DNA of 64,000 bases from Haliotis rufescens (lineage: Eukaryota), in the NCBI RefSeq assembly GCF_023055435.1, contig NW_025963835.1, positions 29,512,001-29,576,000 of the forward strand, written 5' to 3'. Positions 531 through 61,659 of the stretch are shown here, piece after piece. Each line of letters opens with the position of its first letter. The first letter of the stretch is position 1. A program made the translations under genes and the position numbers. The notes below the pieces were generated by a model, which saw only the letters and a program-made list of their open reading frames with translations, was not told the origin of the DNA and searched no databases.

Positions 531-847
531 TATCACAAACATTGTTTATCTGAACCAGTGACCTTAACCGTGATATACCAATGCTTTCAGTAATTTCGTA
601 TGAACATTAACTACATTCTCAGGAAATATATCTTCCTCTCATTATTGCGTAAACTGTCTGTCAAATGTCCTCCATTTCAGTTTTGGTTTGAATAAAACTT
701 AAACTGAATAACGAATAAAAAATCGGGAATTTTAAGAACGTCTTAACCTCATGTGACATGTTATCAGCACTTGTTTTAAAAAAAAAAAAATGTATGTGCT
801 TCCTATTCAATTACCCATAAGGCCATATTTCAATTCTATACAAATCC

Positions 848-1118
848 GACCCGTGAAGATTCCGGGTTAGAATAGGTCTTCAGCAACCCATACTTGCCGT
901 AAAAGGCGACTATGCTTGTCATAAAAGGCGACTAACGGGATCGGGTGGTCAGGCTCGCTGACTTGGTTGATACATGCCATCGATCCCAATTGCGTGGACC
1001 GATGCTCATGATGTCAATTACTGGATTGTCTGGTCCAGACTCGATTATTTTACAGACCGCCGTCATATAGCTGGAATATTGCTGAGTGCGGCGTTAGACA
1101 ACAAACAAACAAACAAAC
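848..1118 (+). mobile_element. SINE-like family B, full length (non-tRNA structured head, (AAAC)n tail)
   Basis: GACCCGTGAAGATTCCGGGTTAG...GGCGACTAACGGGATCGGGTGGTCAGG...GCTGGAATATTGCTGAGTGCGGCGTT; TSD ATACAAATCC (838-847 / 1119-1128). Confidence 0.9.
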
Positions 1119-1485
1119 ATACAAATCCCACAGACTGTTACAAACAGAATAGAATAGAGTGGCATGACACCCACCCACGTTATAATCCCTACATGACTCG
1201 GGACTAATCAACCAGCAAACGCTATAAACAGACCAGAACGATGACAACAAACGCCTAATCATGAATAAATAAATAATTTTTGGTTGACGAAATGGTTCAA
1301 CGACACTGGTAACAGATGCAGCGTATGTCATGCATCATCATAACATGCTGTTGTTGTGTTGTTGACGCATGGACTTCTAAAGTTAATGAGGTTTTGTATT
1401 ATTGATAGGCACGTACACGTTGTGTGAAAACCATGGTTACACAAAGTTGGCTGTGAGGAAGGCCATGCTCATCTATACCCACGTT

Positions 1486-5512: not shown

Positions 5513-6207
5513 CAATGTCGGGGCTTTGATTAATACAATTGTGTCATCACACATCTTCATTGGACTCACTCACCTTTTCGTCATCACACGGGGTACATTT
5601 TGTCATCATATCTCCACGAACCACTCCCACCCTTCCCCTCCCACCCTTCGAAGGTCCTTGAGCCCTCGTTGGAGACCCTGTCCCTCTTGCAGATATGAAA
5701 CCACCCCACAGCGCCTGGAAATTAATGTGATCAGTGACACCCCGGGACAAGGGAGTAGGTAGTGCTGCCATGGCTATTGCAGTAACAGCTTCTGAATGAC
5801 AATCATTATTGACTGGAAATGTCATTCAAATGACAAAAACAAATTGATTTATATTCAGAGATGTGAAGAATCACATTAGCGCCAGATTAATGCCCCGTGT
5901 CGTATACATGCTTCAGAAATGCCATTGATGAACAGATTAATAAATTCCCTCGAGTTAACGCAAAGCCTTTCCGCGTTCATTTGTCACGTGATATCTAGTT
6001 CGATTTGTGTTCTTCATCTAACATAACCCGTGTCTAACAGGAACAGCCCCAAGTACCAGAAACCCTTTGGGGATTCCAGGTTTGGAGTGGTCCCACGGAA
6101 CCTGCACTGGTCATAAGAAGCGACCTTTGGGATCGGGTGGCTTCTCTGTCGATCAGAGTGTAGTGTAATCACTGTTATCTCTACTGGGGCGGGTAGCAGG
6201 GATGTGC

Positions 6208-6489
6208 TGTGAGTGAGTGAGTTGGGTTTAACGCCACTTTTAACAGTATTCCAGTTATATCACGGCGTGTCAGCTAAATGTGGGAGGAAAGTCCGAAGTG
6301 ATGCAGGTCTCAGACGTTTATCACTTCGGTGAAACCCACAAGCACGGGTATGGTGCTGACAAACCTAGAAACATAATCGGTGCGAACCAGGATTCGAATC
6401 CACAATCATAGGTTTCTGGCGTGGCCAAGGGACGCAACTCTGCACAGCGAATCGCGGCGCCTTAGACGACTGGGCCACCCGTGCCCCCC
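6208..6489 (-). mobile_element. SINE family A, full length (tRNA-derived head, (ACTC)n tail)
   Basis: A-box-like TGGCCCAGTCGTCTAAGGCG and B-box-like GATTCGAATCC on the - strand; TSD CAGGGATGTGC (6197-6207 / 6490-6500). Confidence 0.92.
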
Positions 6490-6649: not shown

Positions 6650-7715
6650 AAGCAGACCTGTGTGGATTCCGGGTTAGCATAGGTCCCCAGAAAACTGTGT
6701 TGGTCTCCCCGTGGGGATTCCGTGTTAGAATAAGTCCCCAGCAACCTGTGCTGGTCTGCCTGTGGGGATTCCATGTTAGAATAGGTCCCCAGCAACCTGT
6801 CCTGGTCTGCCGATGTTGATTCCGGGTTAGCATAGGTCCCCAGCAACCTGTGCTGGTCTGCCCGTGGGGATTCCGGGTTAACATAGGTCCTCAGCAACCT
6901 GTACTGGTCTGCCTGTGGGGATTCAGGGATATAAAAGGTCCCCAGCAACCTGTGCTGGTCTGCCGGTGGGGATTCAGGGATATAAAAGGTCCCCAGCAAC
7001 CTGTGCTGGTCTGCCTGTGGGGATTCAGGGATATAAAAGATCCCAAGCAACCTGTGCTGGTCTGCCTGTGGGGATTCAGGGATATAAAAGGTCCCCAGCA
7101 ACCTGTGCTGGTCTGCCAGTGGGGATTCCTGGTTAGAATAGGTCCCCAGCAACCTGTCCTGGTCTGCCGGTGGGGATTCCTGGTTAGAATAGGTCCCCAG
7201 CAACCTTTGCTGGACTGCCGGTGGGGATTCCTGGTTAGAATAGGTCCCCAGCAACCTGTCCTGGTCTGCCGGTGGGGATTCCTGGTTAGAATAGGTCCCC
7301 AGCAACCTGTGCTGGTCTGCCGGTGGGGATTCCTGGTTAGAATAGGTCCCCAGCAACCTGTGCTGGTCTGCCGGTGGGGATTCCTGGTTAGAATAGGTCC
7401 CCAGCAACCTGTGCTGGTCTGCCGGTGGGGATTCAGGGATATAAAAGGTCCCCAGCAACCTGTGCTGGTCTGCCTGTGGGGATTCAGGGATATAAAAGAT
7501 CCCAAGCAACCTGTGCTGGTCTGCCTGTGGGGATTCAGGGATATAAAAGGTCCCCAGCAACCTGTGCTGGTCTGCCAGTGGGGATTCCTGGTTAGAATAG
7601 GTCCCCAGCAACCTGTGCTGGTCTGCCGGTGGGGATTCCTGGTTAGAATAGGTCCCCAGCAACCTGTGCTGGTCTGCCGGTGGGGATTCCTGGTTAGAAT
7701 AGGTCCCCAGCAACA
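6650..7715. repeat. Minisatellite, 51-bp unit GTGGGGATTCCTGGTTAGAATAGGTCCCCAGCAACCTGTGCTGGTCTGCCG (~21 copies), derived from the family B head
   Basis: Directly visible; aligns to nt ~1-50 of family B. Confidence 0.97.
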
Positions 7716-7910
7716 TATAAGGATCAACATATAAGGAGAGGCGACTGTGTGCACTCGGTGGTCAGGCTCGGTCTCTTGATTGATTGCATGTCGTAGTACC
7801 CCGACGGTGAGTGACGTTACTCATTATATCAATCACCGACTTGGTCCAGATTCTAGTATTTACACGCCATAGACATATGGATGGAATATTGCTGAGGGCG
7901 GAACTAAATT
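7716..7910 (+). mobile_element. Family B body and tail directly following the 51-bp head-derived array
   Basis: GAGAGGCGACT...GGTGGTCAGGCTCGG...GGTCCAGATTC...TGGAATATTGCTGAGGGCGG. Confidence 0.75.
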
Positions 7911-8192
7911 AAAAAAGCACAAAGGCTTTACAGTAAAATCATTAAACAACTGCCGAGTACCGTTATGTCGAAATCTGGTGAGTTCTATTTCAAAATTCTC
8001 TTTCTGCACACGCCCCCTGTGTTAAAATTTTCGTTGTGTGATAAGCAGTGCTTGGAATGAGATCTCGATGACTACCTTTAGAACATACTTACTCACCCGC
8101 TGTGCAACACAGTTCTTATAACACATCTTAAAAAGTATTTTCAATAGTAAATACAATCAGTTCGAATTACACAAATTGTTTGTTAATATGAT

Positions 8193-8389
8193 AATAACGC
8201 CTCGCACAGCTATATTCCGGTGATATGACGGCAGTCTGTACATATTCGAGTCTGACCAGACAATCCGGTGATTGATATTATGAGCATCGATCCATGCAAT
8301 CAACAAAGTCACGATCCAATGAGTCACCTCTTACGACCTGCATAGGTTGCTATAGTAACCCTATCCTAAGCCGGAATCCCCACGGGACC
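8193..8389 (-). mobile_element. Diverged family B copy
   Basis: ACCAGACAATCCGGTGATTGAT...CTCTTACGAC...GGAATCCCCACGGG. Confidence 0.7.
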
Positions 8390-12865: not shown

Positions 12866-13080
12866 GTTTGTTTGATTGTTGTTTTACGCCGCAATATTCC
12901 ACCTATATGACGGCGGTCTGTAAATAAATCTAGTGATTGACAACATGACCACCGATCTACGCAATTGAGATACGATGACATGCATCTACCAAATCAGCAA
13001 GCCTGACCACCCGATCCCGTTAGTCGCCTCTTACGACAAGCATGGGTTGCTGAATATTCTAAACGGGATCTTCGCGGGTC
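12866..13080 (-). mobile_element. Family B copy (single-hairpin type)
   Basis: CCTGACCACCCGATCCCGTTAGTCGCCTCTTACGACAAGCATGGGTTGCTG...CTTCGCGGGTC. Confidence 0.85.
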
Positions 13081-16000
13081 GCGTGCACAGTTAGTTCAGT
13101 TATCTGAAATAGCATCTGAATCACAGCTAAAGGGGGCAACCAGATTGTACGTGTAGCGGGCCAAACATTTCCAACTACCGTGATGGGATTCGAAACACGG
13201 ACCTTATGAATTGGGGTCGGAAGTCTCGTCCACATGACCAAAGAGGTTAACCCCGTCAGCAAGCTGACAAGGGAAGGATGTCATCTGTGGGATGACTCCA
13301 CGCTCCGCCACATTCGCATGGGTACATTCCGTGTGGTATGGCTAATTCCGAGTTAGAGCTCGTTATATGACGAACTTCAATTTTATCTGTTTTTGTTTAC
13401 CTACAAGCTATTTTGACAACTGTTAATATCCAAGATAAGAACATGTCTTGTGCTGTATTGTATTGCGTGGATCGTTGTTCATGCTTTCAGCCACTGGTTT
13501 GCCTTGTCAACGCGGAATTATTTACAGGCAGTCATGACGTACCTTTCATAGACCTAATAATCGAGACTGGGTATTCTCCGGTTTTGGCGTTTTATATTTA
13601 TCTGTTTCCGAAAATTCCGGAATTTTCTTTTTTGACGTTTTAAAAATAATTTTGTATAAACAAAGAAAGTTTAGCGCCTCATTTTAGTGCCTGTCTTGAA
13701 GCGTTGACTCTCAAAGACGTTCACCATTATGGTGGAACCAACGACCATGGGTAGGTGCAGACAAAACTTGAACCATAAACAGGGCGAAATGCAGATTCGG
13801 ATCATGACCTTTTGTTTCTTGAACGTCTAAGGGAGGCAACTCTCGGTAGCGAATGGCTCGACGCCTCAGATGACTGGACACGGTGTCCTCTTATTAAGAA
13901 AACTCTTCCAACCAATTGATTATTTCCTCCTCAGTGAATATTGGATGAATATATATATCATATGTGGGGCATAGCCTCGAGTCAGTTCTGAGACTGCATT
14001 ATCGGGGGATATTACAACCGCTGCATTAACCAACGCTTCAATGATTGCATTCTGTTTGAAAAACGTCACTTTTTAATACGGCTGACAACAGGTCACTCTT
14101 TGTTCAGTGAAGTGATTATAAAGATGAATATGGATGAGCTGAGAGATGTGCCTGAATTGACAAGTATGTACAACAATAAATCATTATATACAATATCGCT
14201 GTTAATATTAATATTAATTTTAAATGATGACCAAACAATACCTTTGATTATTGCTCTGAGAAATTATAACCCGTGTTATATTGCTTTATATTGCAATATA
14301 GTTATATCATATGACAGATTATACACTAGCTTATCACCCTTGCCACGCTGCAGTCCACACTGGGCAGATCGATGGCGTACTGTATCAGAGCATTGCACAG
14401 AATCGCTAAGTTGCAGAATGGAAGCAATGAGATCGGCGGCCTTGTTCTTGGAGAAAATCTGCTATCGGTGGCACTATAATGACAGAATTAGGCCATCAAG
14501 TCAAAGCATGCACCTGATTAAAGATCTATAGCTACTCCACGACCAAATAAATAGAAGTCAACGTACGTTTTAGCACCTGCTACTCACATACGCCTCATAA
14601 AACCAATACACTTGCATTAAGCCTATCCCAAAATACCTTATTGAATCGTCATTCATAACAGTACATAAGAATGCCTGTTGTCAAAACAGACGAAAAAGAG
14701 TGAGAGGTCGCTGAAGATCGTTCTTCTCAATTATGCAGCAGAGAATATACCTCGACCAGCCTTAACAAATCATGCATGTAATGTCACCTATTATAGGACG
14801 TGTCATCTTAGATCTTGTTCCCTGTATTCGCAGAGGGTCTTCCATTTTTGTAACCAAACCATTCACTCTCAAAAAGTGCAGTTAACCGAGCCCTACTTGA
14901 CGGTCTATTGTTGGGAGCCCTGCCATAGCTATAGTACGGAACAGATCTAGTCCTAGAATGAACTGCGGCGCTGTCGATCGCCTACAGCAGGCTGATCATT
15001 GAACTAGAAGCTTTCAAGGCAGATTGAAACATGCATGTTTTATTACTGGGGTAGTGAGCGCTGGTCACCTGCGTGTGGAGCCGTATTTGATCAAGCAGGA
15101 AAGGTATGTTATCAGCGTCAATATTACATTTTTAAAAAAAAAATATATTGTTTTTTGATACCTGCTTTTTACATTAATCCTGCCTGGTTAAGGCAACGGG
15201 TGTCTTCAGAGTATTGGTTGGGTATTACTTTACAGTGTTATTAACTTTTCACACGTCGGTGTGAATAATGTGAAAAAATATATTTTACGCCTCGCATCAT
15301 CTATTTGTTTTATTGTGTTGGTGTCAGTAAATATAACACGTTGATTTATTATGTCACAGTGTAATGTCTGCGCTTTTCAATTTAGACATTACGAGGTGTT
15401 TTGTTTGTTTTCCTTTTGACAGCGGTTGTGTATTATCGTGTGATGGATATTATGAGCAATGGTCCACGCTGTCGTAAGTCGCAAGTAGGTCACCGAGTCT
15501 GACCACACCATCCATTAGGTCGCTTAGGACCTTTACCCCATATGACCCCTGGGGAACTTTTAAGCAATGATTTGCAATTTAAGTGTTTGAGGTAGGGAGC
15601 TCATCCAGCATGTTATCAGAACCGTCTTCTCAATGGTGATTAACGCTTCATCATTTAGTAAACACATCGGGTATAGTCCCTGTCATCTGGTCTACTTGTT
15701 GTATGCAGGCTGAATAATAAAGCACTGAAAAAGGGAAACCTTTCAGCATGCATAACAGGCAGTCTGTGTTACGTTGATGTGATGCGTGTGCATGCAGTGC
15801 GGACTGAGTTTTCTGAAGTTGAGAAAAGTGATATTTTCATGTCAGAGAAGAAAACACTTGAAATTTAACTGCAGTGAACATTTTTTAACACTTTGACGGA
15901 ACTATTGTCATAAGAGCTAGCTGGCCTCTCCCACAAATTATACCAATTCTTGTTGTTTGTTATTCTCTTGAACATGTTTCGTTTATAAACTGTATTTGTC

Positions 16001-23368: not shown

Positions 23369-24629
23369 ATACAAAACTCACTCAACTCACTCACCCTCTC
23401 ACTCACTCACTACAGCTAAGTGTTATCCCAACATTTACGATTCCCGACACAGGTGCAAATTATGGAGCACATTTCTTCTGTCGCAGGCTTTGATACAAAA
23501 ATTGCTGCACTCACTCACTCACCCACTCACTCACTCACTCACTCACTCACTCACTGCGTCTGACACAGTAATTTAAGTCTCATGCTAATATTTTGATTCC
23601 AACTCCTCTTCTGGACGATGTTGCATTGCGATAACGAACTCGCTCCCATTTGAAACATCATCCTGCATGTTTTCCACAGTCACCTCAATAACTCCACCAA
23701 AGCATCGCCATCATCACCACCATCACCGACATCACCATCACTTCAGTTACACAGAGGATGTTGTCCTCTCCGCCAGAAAACAGTTCAACATATGTCCATC
23801 GTCTTATAATCTTCATAAAACCGTTGACATCATTGCCTGTCTCACCTACACACCAACTCTACCACCACCTGCTATTTTACCCCGTGTATCTTGAGGGCCA
23901 CCCTCAGCGTACGCTTCAGTGGTCCGCTGCCAATATTGAATTTTACTTTGAAACATGTTGTACGATGATAGATAGCCTGCTCTGTAAAACCAATCTCACT
24001 TTTATTCATCACTGATCCCCCTCATCCCCAGCGTCCCCTCCATCACCAAATCCACATCATGACGTCTTTGCCTCGGGTAACGATTTCTCGCACAAACAAA
24101 TTCGCCCCCCCTAAAGTTTGATCTTTTATTATTTCCATTATTGGTATGGAATTATCAACTAAAATTCACACTGTCCACGTAACGATGATATAATGTGATT
24201 TTGTGCTAATTGATTTTACAATGTGTTCGGCGATCTAGTGTCGAGATTGGGTTTGGAGCATGCAAACCACACATGTGTTGGTCCGAACCCGCTGCGAATG
24301 GCGTTAACAAATAAAGGTGTTAAGCTGTTTTGACAACTAAACTACCAGAAACAACAAAGTATACACACATATGTGATGGTGGATAAAAAAGAAAGAAACA
24401 AACAAGAACTGTTTTTTCTATGTTGATGTATTTAATACGGATATAACAGGACGTTAAGTAGTGACTGTTTTCAGCCTGGTAACATTTTGATAACGTATAC
24501 CCGGGAGGCTTACCATATTTCATAGACTGTGTGACGTGGGGCAGTTAGAAACCAAGACATGCGTTGACCATGTGCAGCCTCACGCTTGTAACCTACCAGT
24601 TGTCGCACAGCTTGGACTGATGTGGATGT

Positions 24630-24896
24630 TAGTTGGTTGGTTTGTTGTTTAACGCCGCACTCACCAATATTCCAGCTATGTGACGGCGGTCTGTAAATAA
24701 TCAAGTCTGGACCAGACAATACAGTGATTAATATCATGAGCATCGATCCACGCAATTGGGATCGATGACATGCATCAACCACATTAGCGATCCTGACCAC
24801 CCGATCCCGTTATTCGCCTCTTACGACAAGCATAGTCGCCTTTTACGGCAAGCATGGGTTGCTGAAGACCTATTCTACCCCGGATCTTCACGGGTA
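24630..24896 (-). mobile_element. Family B, full length (double-hairpin type)
   Basis: TSD TGATGTG(G/A)ATGT (24618-24629 / 24897-24908). Confidence 0.9.
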
Positions 24897-29276: not shown

Positions 29277-29477
29277 CGCCCGTAGAGATTCTGGGTTAGA
29301 ACAGGTCCTCAGAAACCTATGCTGATCGTAAAAGGCGACCAAATTGATCGGGGATCAGGCTCGGTGACTTGAATGATTTTTTTCGACATATCAGTCACTG
29401 GATTGCCTGGTCCAGACTCGATTATTTACAGGTTGCCGTTTATAGCTGGAATTGTGCTTGGTGTGGCGTTAAACAAA
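29277..29477 (+). mobile_element. Family B copy, internally deleted
   Basis: CCCGTAGAGATTCTGGGTTAGAAC...TGGTCCAGACTCGATTATTTACAG...GGCGTTAAAC. Confidence 0.75.
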
Positions 29478-34940: not shown

Positions 34941-35178
34941 GACACGTGTAGTTCCGGGGTAGAATAGGTCTTCATCAACCCATGCTTGTCGGGAAAGACG
35001 ACTAACGGGATTGGGTGGTCAGGCTTGCTGACTTGGTTGATGCATGTCATTGTATCCCAGTTGCGTGGATCATGCTCATGATTTCAATCACTGAATTGTC
35101 TGGACCAGACTCGATTATTTACAGACCGCCGACCTATAGCTCGAATTTTGCTGAGTGCGACGTAAAGCAACAAACGAA
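34941..35178 (+). mobile_element. Family B copy
   Basis: TTCCGGGGTAGAATAGGTCTTCA...GACTAACGGGATTGGGTGGTCAGG...GCTGAGTGCGACGTAAA. Confidence 0.85.
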
Positions 35179-36074
35179 CATTCATATGTCAAACAAACTC
35201 TGTCCATACGTTTAAGCCCTGGAACTCTCACCCTATTCGATGTGCACAATCCTGCAGCATTCACTGGTAAATTGGTGAAATGGTCAACTGGTCAAGCAGT
35301 ACGTCCACCACAGTCAAACACACGCCGTGTTACACACTGTCGGGCGAAGATGAGCGACCAATTACGAACGTTTCTTTCCGTTTTAAAAAAAATCCAGCTT
35401 TTATTCATCCTGCAAAATTAGGGTAGCCACGCTATGTGTCACGTGATTGTGGCAACCCTTTGATGTTAAGGCTTAAAAAGACATCAAACCATTTTTGCGT
35501 TATATAACTACCCACCGTATAATCAACGAATAGCTTGTGCTTAGACCAGTCTAAATCATATGTCATGGGGTGTTATATGTGGAAAAGCAAGCGGAAGTGA
35601 TTGAGGCTTTATAAAAGAAACATGAAGTAATTCCTACTGCAAAAACACCATCAAATAACCGTATGTTTTAGCTGTTGACTGACTGCCGCAGGACGATACC
35701 ATCAACGCCTAACCCCGATGGTATCATGGTTCTACGCGATCGCGAGGCCGATGCTCAGATAGTGGTTGTCGCTAGGTGTTGTGACTGGCTGTTGCGCCGG
35801 CTCCTGTGTTTATGGGACTTGGACATGCACGTCCGTCCTGCCTCATGTCGGGCGCAGCATGGTTTATTTAGAGGCACTTGCGAAGATTAATTTGCCCTTT
35901 TCCCCCGTAATCATTTGTAACCGATATCAAACATTACTCCCCGGAAGTGAACTACGCTTAATGCGGTGTTCGACAGTCAGCCCTGTCCAGTGCTTTTGTT
36001 TAGTGCAATTAATCTTGCAAATCCTTGAGGCAGGTTTCATCAGTTACTTTCTTCCAGGCCTGGGGGTGGTGAGA

Positions 36075-48390: not shown

Positions 48391-48589
48391 GTTTGTTTGT
48401 TTGTTGTTTAACGCCGCACTCAGCAATATTCCAGCTTTATGACGGCGGTCTGTAAATAACCGAGTGATTGGCAACATGAGCATCGATCTACGCAATTGAA
48501 GATATAGTGACATGCATCAATCGAGCCTGATCACGCATTCCTGCTTGCCGCCTTTTATGACACAATTTTAACACGGATATTTACGGGTA
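48391..48589 (-). mobile_element. Family B copy with deletions
   Basis: (GTTT)n tail and B body; TSD CCGT(A/T)CATGG (48380-48389 / 48590-48599). Confidence 0.8.
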
Positions 48590-56837: not shown

Positions 56838-58625
56838 GAATATATAGATAGACAGCTAGACTGGTATATTAATAGACAGCTACAATGGTATATTGATTTT
56901 TGTTTTTGTTTGTTTGTTGTTTGCCGCCACACACAGCAATATTCCAGCCATATGACAGCGGTCTGTAAATAATCGAGTCTAGACCAGACAATCCAGTGAT
57001 TGATATCATGAGCGTCGATCCACGCAATTGGAGTACGATGACATGCATCATCAAGTCAGCGAGCCTGACCACCCGATCCCGTTAGTCGCATCTTACGACA
57101 AGCATTGTCGCCTTTTACGACAAGCATGGGTTACTGAAGACCGACCGATTCTAACCCGTATCTTCACGGGTTGGTATATTGATAGACAGTTAGACATATG
57201 ATATGAATAGACAGCGAGACTGGTATATAGATAGACACCTAGACTGGTATATGAATAGACAGCTAGACTGGTACATGAAAAGACAGCTAGACTGGTATTT
57301 GAATAGACAGTTAGACTGGTATATGAATAGATACCTAGACTGGTATATGAATAGACAGCTAGACTTGTATATGAAAAGACAGCTAAACTGGAATATAGAT
57401 AGACAGCGAAACTGGTACGTGAATAGACTGGTATATGAAAAGACAACTAGACTTGTATATAGATAGACACCAAGACTTGAATATGAATAGACAGCTGGAT
57501 TGGTATATGAAAAGACAGCTAGACTGGTATATAGATAGACAAATAGACTGGTATATAGATAGACAAATAGACTGGTATATTAATAGACAGCTAGACTGGT
57601 ATATGAAAAGACAGCTAGACTGGTAAATGAAAAGACAACTAGATTGGTTTATAGACAGCAACATAGACTGATATATGAATAGACAGCTAGACTGGTACAT
57701 GAAAAGACAGCTAGACTGGTATATGAAAAGACAGCTAAACTGGAATATAGATAGACAGCGAAACTGGTACGTGAATAGACTGGTATATGAAAAGACAACT
57801 AGACTTGTATATAGATAGACACCAAGACTTGTATATGAATAGACAGCTGGATTGGTATATGAAAAGACAGCTAGACTGGTATATAGATAGACAAATAGAC
57901 TGGTATATAGATAGACAAATAGACTGGTATATTAATAGACAGCTAGACTGGTATATGAAAAGACAGCTAGACTGGTAAATGAAAAGACAACTAGATTGGT
58001 TTATAGACAGCAACATAGACTGATATATGAATAGACAGCTAGACTGGTACATGAAAAGACAGCTAGACTGGTATATGAATAGACAGCTAGACTGGTATAT
58101 GAATAGACACCTAGACTGGTATATGTATAGACAGCTAGACTGGTATATGAATAGACAGCTAGACTGGTATATCAAAAGACAGCTAATCTGGAATATAGAT
58201 AAACAGCGAAACTGGTACGTGAATAGACTGGTATATGAAAAGACAACTAGACTGGTATATAGATAGACACCAAGACTTGTATATGAATAGACAGCTGGAT
58301 TGGTATATGAAAAGACAGCTAGACTGGTATATAGATAGACAAATAGACTGGTATATTAATAGACAGCTAGACTGGTATATGAATAGACAGCTAGACTGGT
58401 ATATGAAAAGACAGCTAGACTAGTATGTAAATAGACAGCTAGACTGGTATATAGTTAGACAGCTTCTCTGGTATATGAATAGACAGCTTCACTGGTATAT
58501 GAATAGACAGCTAGACTGATATGTGAAAAGATAGCTAGATTGGTATATAGATAGACAGCTACACTGGTATATGAAAAGACAGCTAGACTGGCATATGAAT
58601 AGACATCTAGACTAGTGTATAGATG
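56838..58625. repeat. Minisatellite, 24-bp unit ATGAATAGACAGCTAGACTGGTAT, with degenerate continuation at ~59455-59500 and ~59655-59830
   Basis: Directly visible; interrupted by a family B SINE; contains a 352-bp internal duplication. Confidence 0.95.
56898..57171 (-). mobile_element. Family B, full length, inserted in the 24-bp minisatellite
   Basis: TSD TGGTATATTGAT (56886-56897 / 57172-57183). Confidence 0.9.
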
Positions 58626-61006: not shown

Positions 61007-61282
61007 GACCCGTGAAGATTCCGGTGTAGAATAGGTCTTCAGCAACCCATGCTTGCCGTAAAAGGTGACTATGCTTGTCGTAAAAGGCGACTAACGGGAT
61101 CAGGTGGTCAGACTCGCTGACTTGATTGATGCATGTCATCGATCCCAATTGCGTGGGTCGATGCTCATGATATCAATCACTGGATTGTCTGGTCCAGACC
61201 CGATTATTTACAGACCGCCGCCATATAGCTGGAATATTGCTGAGTGTGGCGTTAAACAACAAACCAACTAACCAACCAACAT
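61007..61282 (+). mobile_element. Family B, full length
   Basis: TSD TACCTTGA (60999-61006 / 61283-61290). Confidence 0.9.
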
Positions 61283-61421: not shown

Positions 61422-61659
61422 TGTTTGTTTGTTGTTTAACGCCGCACTTTCCGAGATATATTCTTGCTTTATGACGAGTCTGTATATAATCGAATCTGGA
61501 CTAGACAACCCAGTGATTGATATGATGAGCATCGATCTACGCATTTGGGATACGATGATATGCTTCAACTAAGTGAGTGTGGGCATCCGATCCCGTCAGT
61601 CGGCTCTTTCGAGAAGCATGCGTTGCTGAGGACCAATTCTAGCCCGGATCTTCACGAGG
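61422..61659 (-). mobile_element. Family B, diverged full-length copy
   Basis: GTTGTTTAACGCCGCAC...CCGATCCCGTCAGTCG...CCCGGATCTTCACGAGG. Confidence 0.85.

Follow-up and report, generated by a model that had tools for sequence, protein, structure and literature searches.

Mollusc genomes carry SINEs whose heads derive from LINEs. In these LP-SINEs, with members including Hdi_LP, Hmi_LP, Lsa_2 and Sgl_LP, the initial ~70 nt correspond to the 5' ends of the LINEs Nimb-17_LMi, I-3_DR and RTE-9_CPB (PMC4758252). The same source gives a 255-bp Haliotis consensus, proposes the head as a promoter and names no partner LINE; as far as its text was covered, neither RNA structure nor viral copies are mentioned. 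Since LP-SINEs were described, it has been a standing question by what means a SINE that lacks a small-RNA head produces its RNA. Two groups of RNA elements bear on it. HDV-like ribozymes occur in R2, RTE, baggins and L1Tc, and 5' stability has been proposed as a limit on R2 insertion (PMC11331408). In viruses, the base of the first helix is where published xrRNAs halt Xrn1 (PMC10520033, PMC12397905); such elements can occur in tandem (PMC8374639), and the pairing of a hairpin loop with a 3' segment is the connectivity of plant-virus xrRNAs (PMC12397905).

Family B, a repeat in the 64,000-nt stretch of Haliotis rufescens DNA analysed here (the window), fits the published mollusc LP-SINEs, and would thus be a non-autonomous retroposon of that type, without a tRNA head. 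Family members are 245-270 nt long, with a sharp 5' end and target-site duplications. They are like LP-SINEs in their LINE-homologous 5' ~70 nt, their variable duplications and their short 3' tandem repeats, and in a length near the 255-bp consensus. The LP-SINE hexamer AATATA before the tail repeats reads AATATT in young copies and AATATA in an older copy at 8386. The copy at 848-1118 is a 271-nt repeat that ends in (CAAA)n and is flanked by 10-nt duplications. Its features are listed here, with the helices as predicted:

838..847, plus strand: left target-site duplication, 10 nt, identical to 1119-1128
848..1118, plus strand: family B SINE copy, young B1 subfamily, LP-SINE type
850..853, plus strand: P1, 5' strand; 37 of 40 pairs form over ten lineages, and 848-849 join the helix in the GGGTT allele
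854..862, plus strand: P1 loop, doubling as the 5' pseudoknot strand; 9 nt long in the 848 allele, 8 nt in most lineages
863..866, plus strand: P1, 3' strand
867..874, plus strand: pseudoknot linker with conserved AGAAU (invariant columns in alignment A2)
875..882, plus strand: pseudoknot, 3' strand (two-sided changes in 7 of 8 pairs)
887..889, plus strand: P3, 5' strand, predicted to pair with 937-939
893..934, plus strand: 22-nt tandem duplication of the conserved hairpin, then UAA
896-910 and 918-932, plus strand: the duplicated hairpins, both mismatched in the 848 copy
937..939, plus strand: P3, 3' strand, predicted to pair with 887-889
1065..1085, plus strand: tail segment common to the 3' end of the head-bearing LINE (19 of 21 identical)
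1119..1128, plus strand: right target-site duplication

About a dozen more family B copies or heads were found inside the window with BLAST and a covariance model. They fall into two subfamilies, B1, which is young, and B2, which is older and of the GGGGA/TCCCC type:

6063..6140, plus strand: B2 head (GGGGA/TCCCC type)
6654..7901, plus strand: 51-nt tandem array derived from a B2 head (P1 and part of the pseudoknot), continuing into B2 body
8176..8388, minus strand: B2-type copy
12866..13081, minus strand: B1 copy without the 22-nt duplication
24619..24896, minus strand: full-length B1 copy
29279..29476, plus strand: older copy, B2-like
34941..35180, plus strand: B1 copy without the 22-nt duplication
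48391..48589, minus strand: decayed family B copy with an internal deletion
56905..57171, minus strand: full-length B1 copy
61007..61282, plus strand: full-length B1 copy
61422..61659, minus strand: decayed family B copy

The copies bounded by duplications that a first-pass annotation of this DNA had listed do exist, at 848 (10/10), 61007 (8/8), 24896 (12 nt, 1 mismatch), 48589 (10 nt, 1 mismatch) and 57171 (18 nt, 1 mismatch); the last adjoins a minisatellite and is hence less telling. Across the 1.33-Gb genome, the core pattern of the head has 3013 exact matches, compared with 0 for a reversed control. A profile search of 600 kb sampled at 60 round coordinates gave 117 matches that were not tail-only, 64 of them beginning within the first ten profile positions; scaled from this sample, in which one region contributes five tandem copies, the genome would hold roughly 10^5 copies. 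A strict script called a target-site duplication in 13 of 49 full-length sampled copies. The 22-nt insertion, a tandem duplication of the hairpin, marks the dominant young subfamily: it is present in 18 of 19 intact sampled heads, and the second hairpin is intact in 11 of 16. When the usual 3' flank was barred from the pattern, 143 matches remained, and each of the 30 inspected proved to be a variant or an array of family B. The 848 copy has 30 small-RNA reads from three runs, too few to show 5' ends. At L185, a whole family B copy lies within a 1.8-kb unit repeated five times in tandem.

When 55 heads are anchored on internal letters only, 38 of them show G at -2 and 46 show A at -1; further up, from -3 to -12, the letters are mixed. 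The sharp 5' end reported at first is thereby borne out, fixed 2 nt before P1, and with mixed letters upstream of it the head is not a truncation of a longer, tRNA-headed parent. The reported absence of Pol III boxes holds as well. The best A box has 2 mismatches in 30/30 young copies and the best B box 2 in 29/30; a neighbouring tRNA-headed SINE has 1 and 1. The A and B boxes that define a tRNA-derived SINE are thus not found in the family B head. ARAGORN detected 0 tRNA genes in the window, and the tRNA-headed neighbour was also missed by it.

The head of family B is a structured RNA module of ~90 bases under selection, predicted from covariation to consist of a pseudoknot and a hairpin. One fold appears to be held across ten lineages (six viruses, B1, B2 and two subfamilies of a LINE, the viruses and the LINE being described below): P1 joins 850-853 to 863-866, and the P1 loop pairs with 875-882. 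The pseudoknot helix forms 72 of 80 pairs over the ten lineages, with many two-sided changes. When a loop is set against the partner from another lineage, 4.6 of 8 pairs form, and the real total was reached by none of 100000 permutations. The six viruses, with six different loop sequences, keep 22 of 24 pairs in P1 and 45 of 48 in the loop-to-3' helix. The hairpin is near-invariant and the AGAAU linker is conserved across lineages, the ~20 near-invariant letters lying in loops and linkers. P3 closes the hairpin in most lineages in varying registers; it is longer and variably placed in the LINE and the viruses, and its support is weaker than that of P1 or of the pseudoknot. The energies of the nested folds, with z from -0.3 to -2.3, do not stand out. 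By eye, the published scallop block of 'Nimb-17 homology' has the same linker, hairpin and pairings as the family B head, and in Supplementary Fig. S2 of PMC4758252 the C-run of P1 stands at the very start of the scallop heads or immediately after it.

That the head is a structured module under selection, with pairs that covary across lineages, had been proposed at the outset and stands. Of the fold proposed with it, the central stem (854-860/876-882) is real and the hairpin is right; the C-rich and G-rich helices had been given swapped partners. Paired cells make up 44% for the outer helix 850-853/936-939 and 67% for GGGTT/AACCC, whereas the revised helices reach 82% and 89%, and the two long helices break in 5/6 viruses. 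In alignment A2, which has 13 rows, some of them related, and leaves out L034 and L035, 88% of cells are paired under the revised structure, with a covariation score of 0.49, as against 76% and 0.38 for the earlier one. The viral failures and the lower A2 scores rule out the earlier version as the conserved fold. Several of the changes cited for it also read differently. GAAGA/TCTTC to GGGGA/TCCCC is a true two-sided change, and it marks an older dispersed subfamily, beyond the array in which it had been noticed. GGGTT, however, is a minority allele (12/46 heads), 23/46 reading GGGGT with the partner unchanged; GGGTTA/TAACCC is one-sided; and CAGGTT/AACCTG is not a linked change, AACCT being found with CAGG, CTGG and CCGG alike, a variation that probably represents CpG decay. 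The GTCG/CGAC hairpin was rightly called, except that the 848 copy has no perfect one and carries two mismatched copies in 893-934. The swapped helices are still able to form in B1, the LINE and the viral contig L032, and the minimum-energy nested fold that RNAfold gives for the intact B1 head includes the outer helix, so a second conformer in the retroelements is possible.

A variant of the pattern exposed a second head-bearing family in the genome, with 938 matches. The head-bearing LINE group is ~6.2 kb long and has two ORFs, ORF2 encoding an AP endonuclease, a reverse transcriptase and an RNase H (Pfam). The element at L429 has frames of 453 aa and 1230 aa and the ORF1 and ORF2 domains of the I superfamily, of which Nimb and Ingi are clades in molluscs (PMC10294476). 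The LINE matches the family B head at 81% over 64 nt (E 1e-11) and its tail at 19 of 21 positions (E 0.005 in a four-LINE database), and is likely, given a tail match that is short, to be the partner of family B. The top 150 reverse-transcriptase matches led elsewhere, to LINEs of another group that lack the head and have a different tail (20 loci), and the other I-type LINEs examined begin with CAGT-like letters. The head-bearing group (L425, L428, L429 and L433-L475) comprises ~1000 copies, clustered and nested in one another; its subfamilies differ by 20-30% further in, and their first ~310 nt, ribozyme and module included, are 89-97% alike.

In the LINE, the module begins 57 nt inside the element, behind an HDV-like ribozyme fold. 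Rfam RF02682 matches the first 57 nt at the exact 5' end in 5/5 loci with 27.5-30.5 bits (E 0.05-0.26, under the gathering score of 44). These 57 nt have P1 with a G1-U wobble, P2, P3, an L3 of UCCUCGU, a P1.1 of GG and the C of J4/2, and with all the listed features of the class present they are read as a predicted ribozyme of the kind found in R2, RTE, baggins and L1Tc. Among 48 LINE copies, 43 could be anchored, and 43/43 begin at G1 of this fold after mixed flanking letters; four of the other five have a mutated ribozyme start and one is cut within the ribozyme. Duplications abut G1 in 3/3 full-length copies, and 1013 copies retain the 3' strand of the ribozyme upstream of the module. No LINE copy starting at the module was found: a no-upstream pattern, estimated to pass ~30% of random flanks, gave 3 matches, all still with the ribozyme. 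The pseudoknot shows a two-sided A-U to C-G change between LINE subfamilies.

The starts of the LINE copies bear directly on the first-pass suggestion that the module processes or promotes the RNA of the element. Either a cutter or a promoter would yield LINE copies beginning at the module, and since all anchored copies begin at G1 and none found begins at the module, both readings are weakened. It is unlikely that the module is a cutter or a promoter that sets the start.

The module is also found in viruses. An 18-nt core pattern matched nine viral stretches, and six distinct contigs contain the full module at fixed spacing; L042 repeats L037, and L040 and L044, which have the hairpin without the linker or the upstream part, were dropped. 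Five are RNA-virus contigs: L032 (RdRP_4), L043 (RdRP_3), L037 (peptidase A21 capsid), L041 (nodavirus capsid) and L036, which has no Pfam match and looks polymerase-like by eye. In 5/5 the module lies on the coding strand 6-101 nt past the last stop codon, at 89-183 nt from the contig end, and in L036 it is present as two tandem copies with differing paired letters. The sixth, L031, is a 212-kb AT-rich contig of a large DNA virus with the module between two same-strand ORFs. None of the looser viral scans added a new virus, and their matches were mostly chance (at least 120 stretches with 1 true, 8 with 7 true, 11 with 5 true, 27 with 7 true, and 1 match that was already known). The phage collection had no match to the module pattern. 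That a 90-nt RNA element is common to animal retrotransposons and to double- and single-stranded RNA viruses is unexpected.

Two prokaryote-genome matches, L034 and L035, look like animal DNA in metagenome bins and were set aside. Related SINE or head sequences occur in L033, a metagenome contig, and in these two bacterial genome bins, probably all animal host DNA; the pseudoknot linker is longer in L035.

Among described RNAs, the module resembles the class 3 xrRNAs of dianthoviruses, luteoviruses and ST9a (PMC12397905, PMC8374639). It is like them in the pairing of the apical loop with a 3' segment, a long pseudoknot helix (8 bp as against 9 in ST9a), an end point at the P1 base, which for the module is predicted, and a 3' UTR or intergenic location. 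It is unlike them in having a single 4-5-bp stem, with no P1-P2 stack and J1/2-L2B contact, an AGAAU linker with no AGY motif and an extra conserved hairpin, and in occurring in retroelements. The coremin xrRNA (PMC10520033) also has ~20 conserved letters on a GUC...GAC hairpin followed by UAA, and is likewise scattered over unrelated RNA virus families; the loop of the module is not YGAD/YGNNAD, there is no conserved 8-10-nt spacer or hp2, and the hairpin is downstream of the pseudoknot, not at the 5' edge. The three-way junction and double pseudoknot of classes 1 and 2 are not seen in the module.

The SINE head differs from HDV-like ribozymes. It has no P1 from its first base, no nested P2, P3 and P1.1, no L3 of the UCCUCG type and no J4/2 C, as covariation gives a single H-type pseudoknot and Rfam gives no match; in place of a nested double pseudoknot it has the separate module that follows the ribozyme in the LINE. 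Pistol and twister ribozymes have a short stem with a pseudoknotted loop and an A-rich linker, as the module does. The module, however, has no second helix enclosing a cleavage site and neither the UA step nor the second pseudoknot of twister. These comparisons were made by eye (PMC6154101 for the twister core; see also PMC10085705); circularly permuted HDV, twister, pistol and hatchet mappings gave no fit. No hammerhead, twister, twister-sister, pistol, hatchet or hairpin ribozyme of Rfam matched the module at E<=5 in the window and 14 loci, and none of the six weak Rfam matches in the window lies on family B. The earlier statement that the module fits no HDV, hammerhead, twister or pistol template is thus upheld. 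In the literature searched, which excluded figures, most subscription journals, Repbase, Dfam and bioRxiv supplements, no description of the module core was found, nor any title or abstract opening that deals with such a fold. The SINE type is already known; the fold of its head was found in no earlier description, and a prior one may exist.

The reading that we favour, tentatively and at somewhat less than an even chance, is that the module acts as a cap substitute, stalling 5'-to-3' exoribonucleases. A block to 5'-to-3' decay would fit the SINE start at the P1 base, the position of the module in the viruses, the tandem pair in L036, likened to tandem xrRNAs, and the loop-to-3' topology. A SINE copy would be transcribed passively as part of a host RNA. 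Nucleases digesting this transcript from its 5' end would halt at the P1 base, and what remains would be a stable SINE RNA with its first letter 2 nt ahead of the stem, a template that the LINE protein would copy via the common tail. In viruses, the block would leave a protected 3'-UTR fragment. In the LINE, the 5' end would come from the HDV-like ribozyme upstream, with the module behind it as a second barrier. With somewhat greater reserve, a retroelement may in this way carve a precisely ended RNA from any host transcript, without promoter or ribozyme, by means of the host decay machinery.

Several observations count against an exonuclease block. It permits LINE copies trimmed to the module, and none were found. 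The pseudoknot has undergone its two-sided change in the LINE, an RNA for which the ribozyme fold should be protection enough; this hints that the module has some other job there. The ~20 near-invariant letters are more than in most xrRNA classes and suit a protein- or ribosome-binding site. The defining features of xrRNA classes 1-3 and of coremin are absent, the module carries a 22-nt insertion in the dominant young SINE subfamily, which tolerates it, and the nested folding energies are unremarkable. The G at -2, in only 38/55 heads, is possibly a copied cap, which would favour a promoter. An exonuclease block thus explains less well why the LINE keeps the module.

That retention is better explained by a role in translation or ribosome binding. 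The module would then be a cap-independent translation element that binds a translation factor or the ribosome, an account that we place second and consider less likely than not. Both the LINE RNA, left uncapped by the ribozyme cut, and uncapped viral RNAs would be translated with its help, and through it SINE RNA would reach the ribosomes that make LINE protein; the sharp 5' end would be a by-product of the bound fold. Alu RNA is brought to ribosomes by SRP9/14. The structural selection on the module in the LINE 5' UTR behind the ribozyme, the near-invariance of its loop and linker letters, and its location between two same-strand ORFs in L031 are all in keeping with such a role, as is its presence in 3' UTRs of viruses with RdRP_3 and RdRP_4 polymerases. 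Viruses of these two groups are often without caps. HDV-like LINE leaders, moreover, have been tied to cap-independent translation (PMC6765202). The fixed start of the SINE is not explained by a translation role alone; the SINE has no ORF, and Rfam has no translation-element match. Exonuclease block and translation role may both hold.

The lead given by the first-pass annotation, a ribozyme, here taken as a new self-cleaving class with its cut 2 nt ahead of P1, is improbable. The SINE 5' end is sharp and the ~20 near-invariant letters lie in loops and linkers, and ribozymes are known, single or in tandem, in the UTRs of linear RNA viruses (PMC13725137). In the LINE, however, the copies retain the 57 nt ahead of the module, and the pairs of the module go on covarying, although the cut site would fall inside the P2 helix of the LINE ribozyme and might be blocked. 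Around the would-be site no letter is conserved across lineages, cleavage within the 3' UTR of a virus would detach the end of its genome, and no Rfam ribozyme matches the module.

We give little credence to the proposal of the LP-SINE authors that the head is an internal promoter from a LINE, in which case the RNA fold would be a separate, second feature. The head does stand at the 5' end of several SINE and LINE families (PMC4758252), the G at -2 is partly penetrant, as a copied cap would be, and the 77-nt head of L1Tc is both promoter and ribozyme. A promoter, however, has no role in RNA viruses, and a DNA promoter cannot explain conservation of the module there, which weakens the promoter half of the first-pass suggestion further; the pairs covary as RNA, the module in the LINE of this genome starts no copies at its own 5' edge, and the other I-type LINEs have CAGT-like starts. 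A binding site for the polymerase of the element itself, whether LINE ORF2 protein or viral replicase, with a possible switch between the revised and strand-swapped folds, is highly improbable: R2 protein does bind a 5' pseudoknot, the swapped helices can form in B1, the LINE and L032, and the nested minimum-energy fold of B1 has the earlier outer helix, but the swapped fold fails in 5/6 viruses and one sequence is unlikely to be read by a reverse transcriptase and three unrelated groups of viral polymerases.

With a conserved fold, a candidate partner LINE and viral homologues, the question of how such SINEs make their RNA becomes testable. If the module blocks exonucleases as we favour, it would be an xrRNA in cellular retroelements, of which the literature searched gave no example, and a defined 5' end could then be reached in three ways, by an internal promoter, by a ribozyme or by such a block. 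Its compactness may also make the module useful as a tool to protect uncapped RNA.

Some further features of the window and related loci are of interest. The head seeds tandem arrays repeatedly (window 6654-7714, L236, L338-L339 and L350-L352), with units of 51, 61 and 22 nt that each correspond to a structural sub-unit of the module, and about twenty minisatellite arrays with periods of 22-52 nt occupy a large part of the window. A family A SINE on the minus strand at 6200-6480 is tRNA-headed, with A and B boxes, and has its tail type and (CACT)n end in common with the head-bearing LINE. Another I-type LINE family with a 1260-aa ORF2 (L272, L278, L283 and L285) has an antisense piece of family B tail fixed in its duplicated 5' UTR. 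Antisense to the LINE module at L433:1478-1508, minus strand, there are 127 small-RNA reads of ~31 nt, all with one start and U first; they are piRNA-like and come from one library, of a species that also has the SINE.
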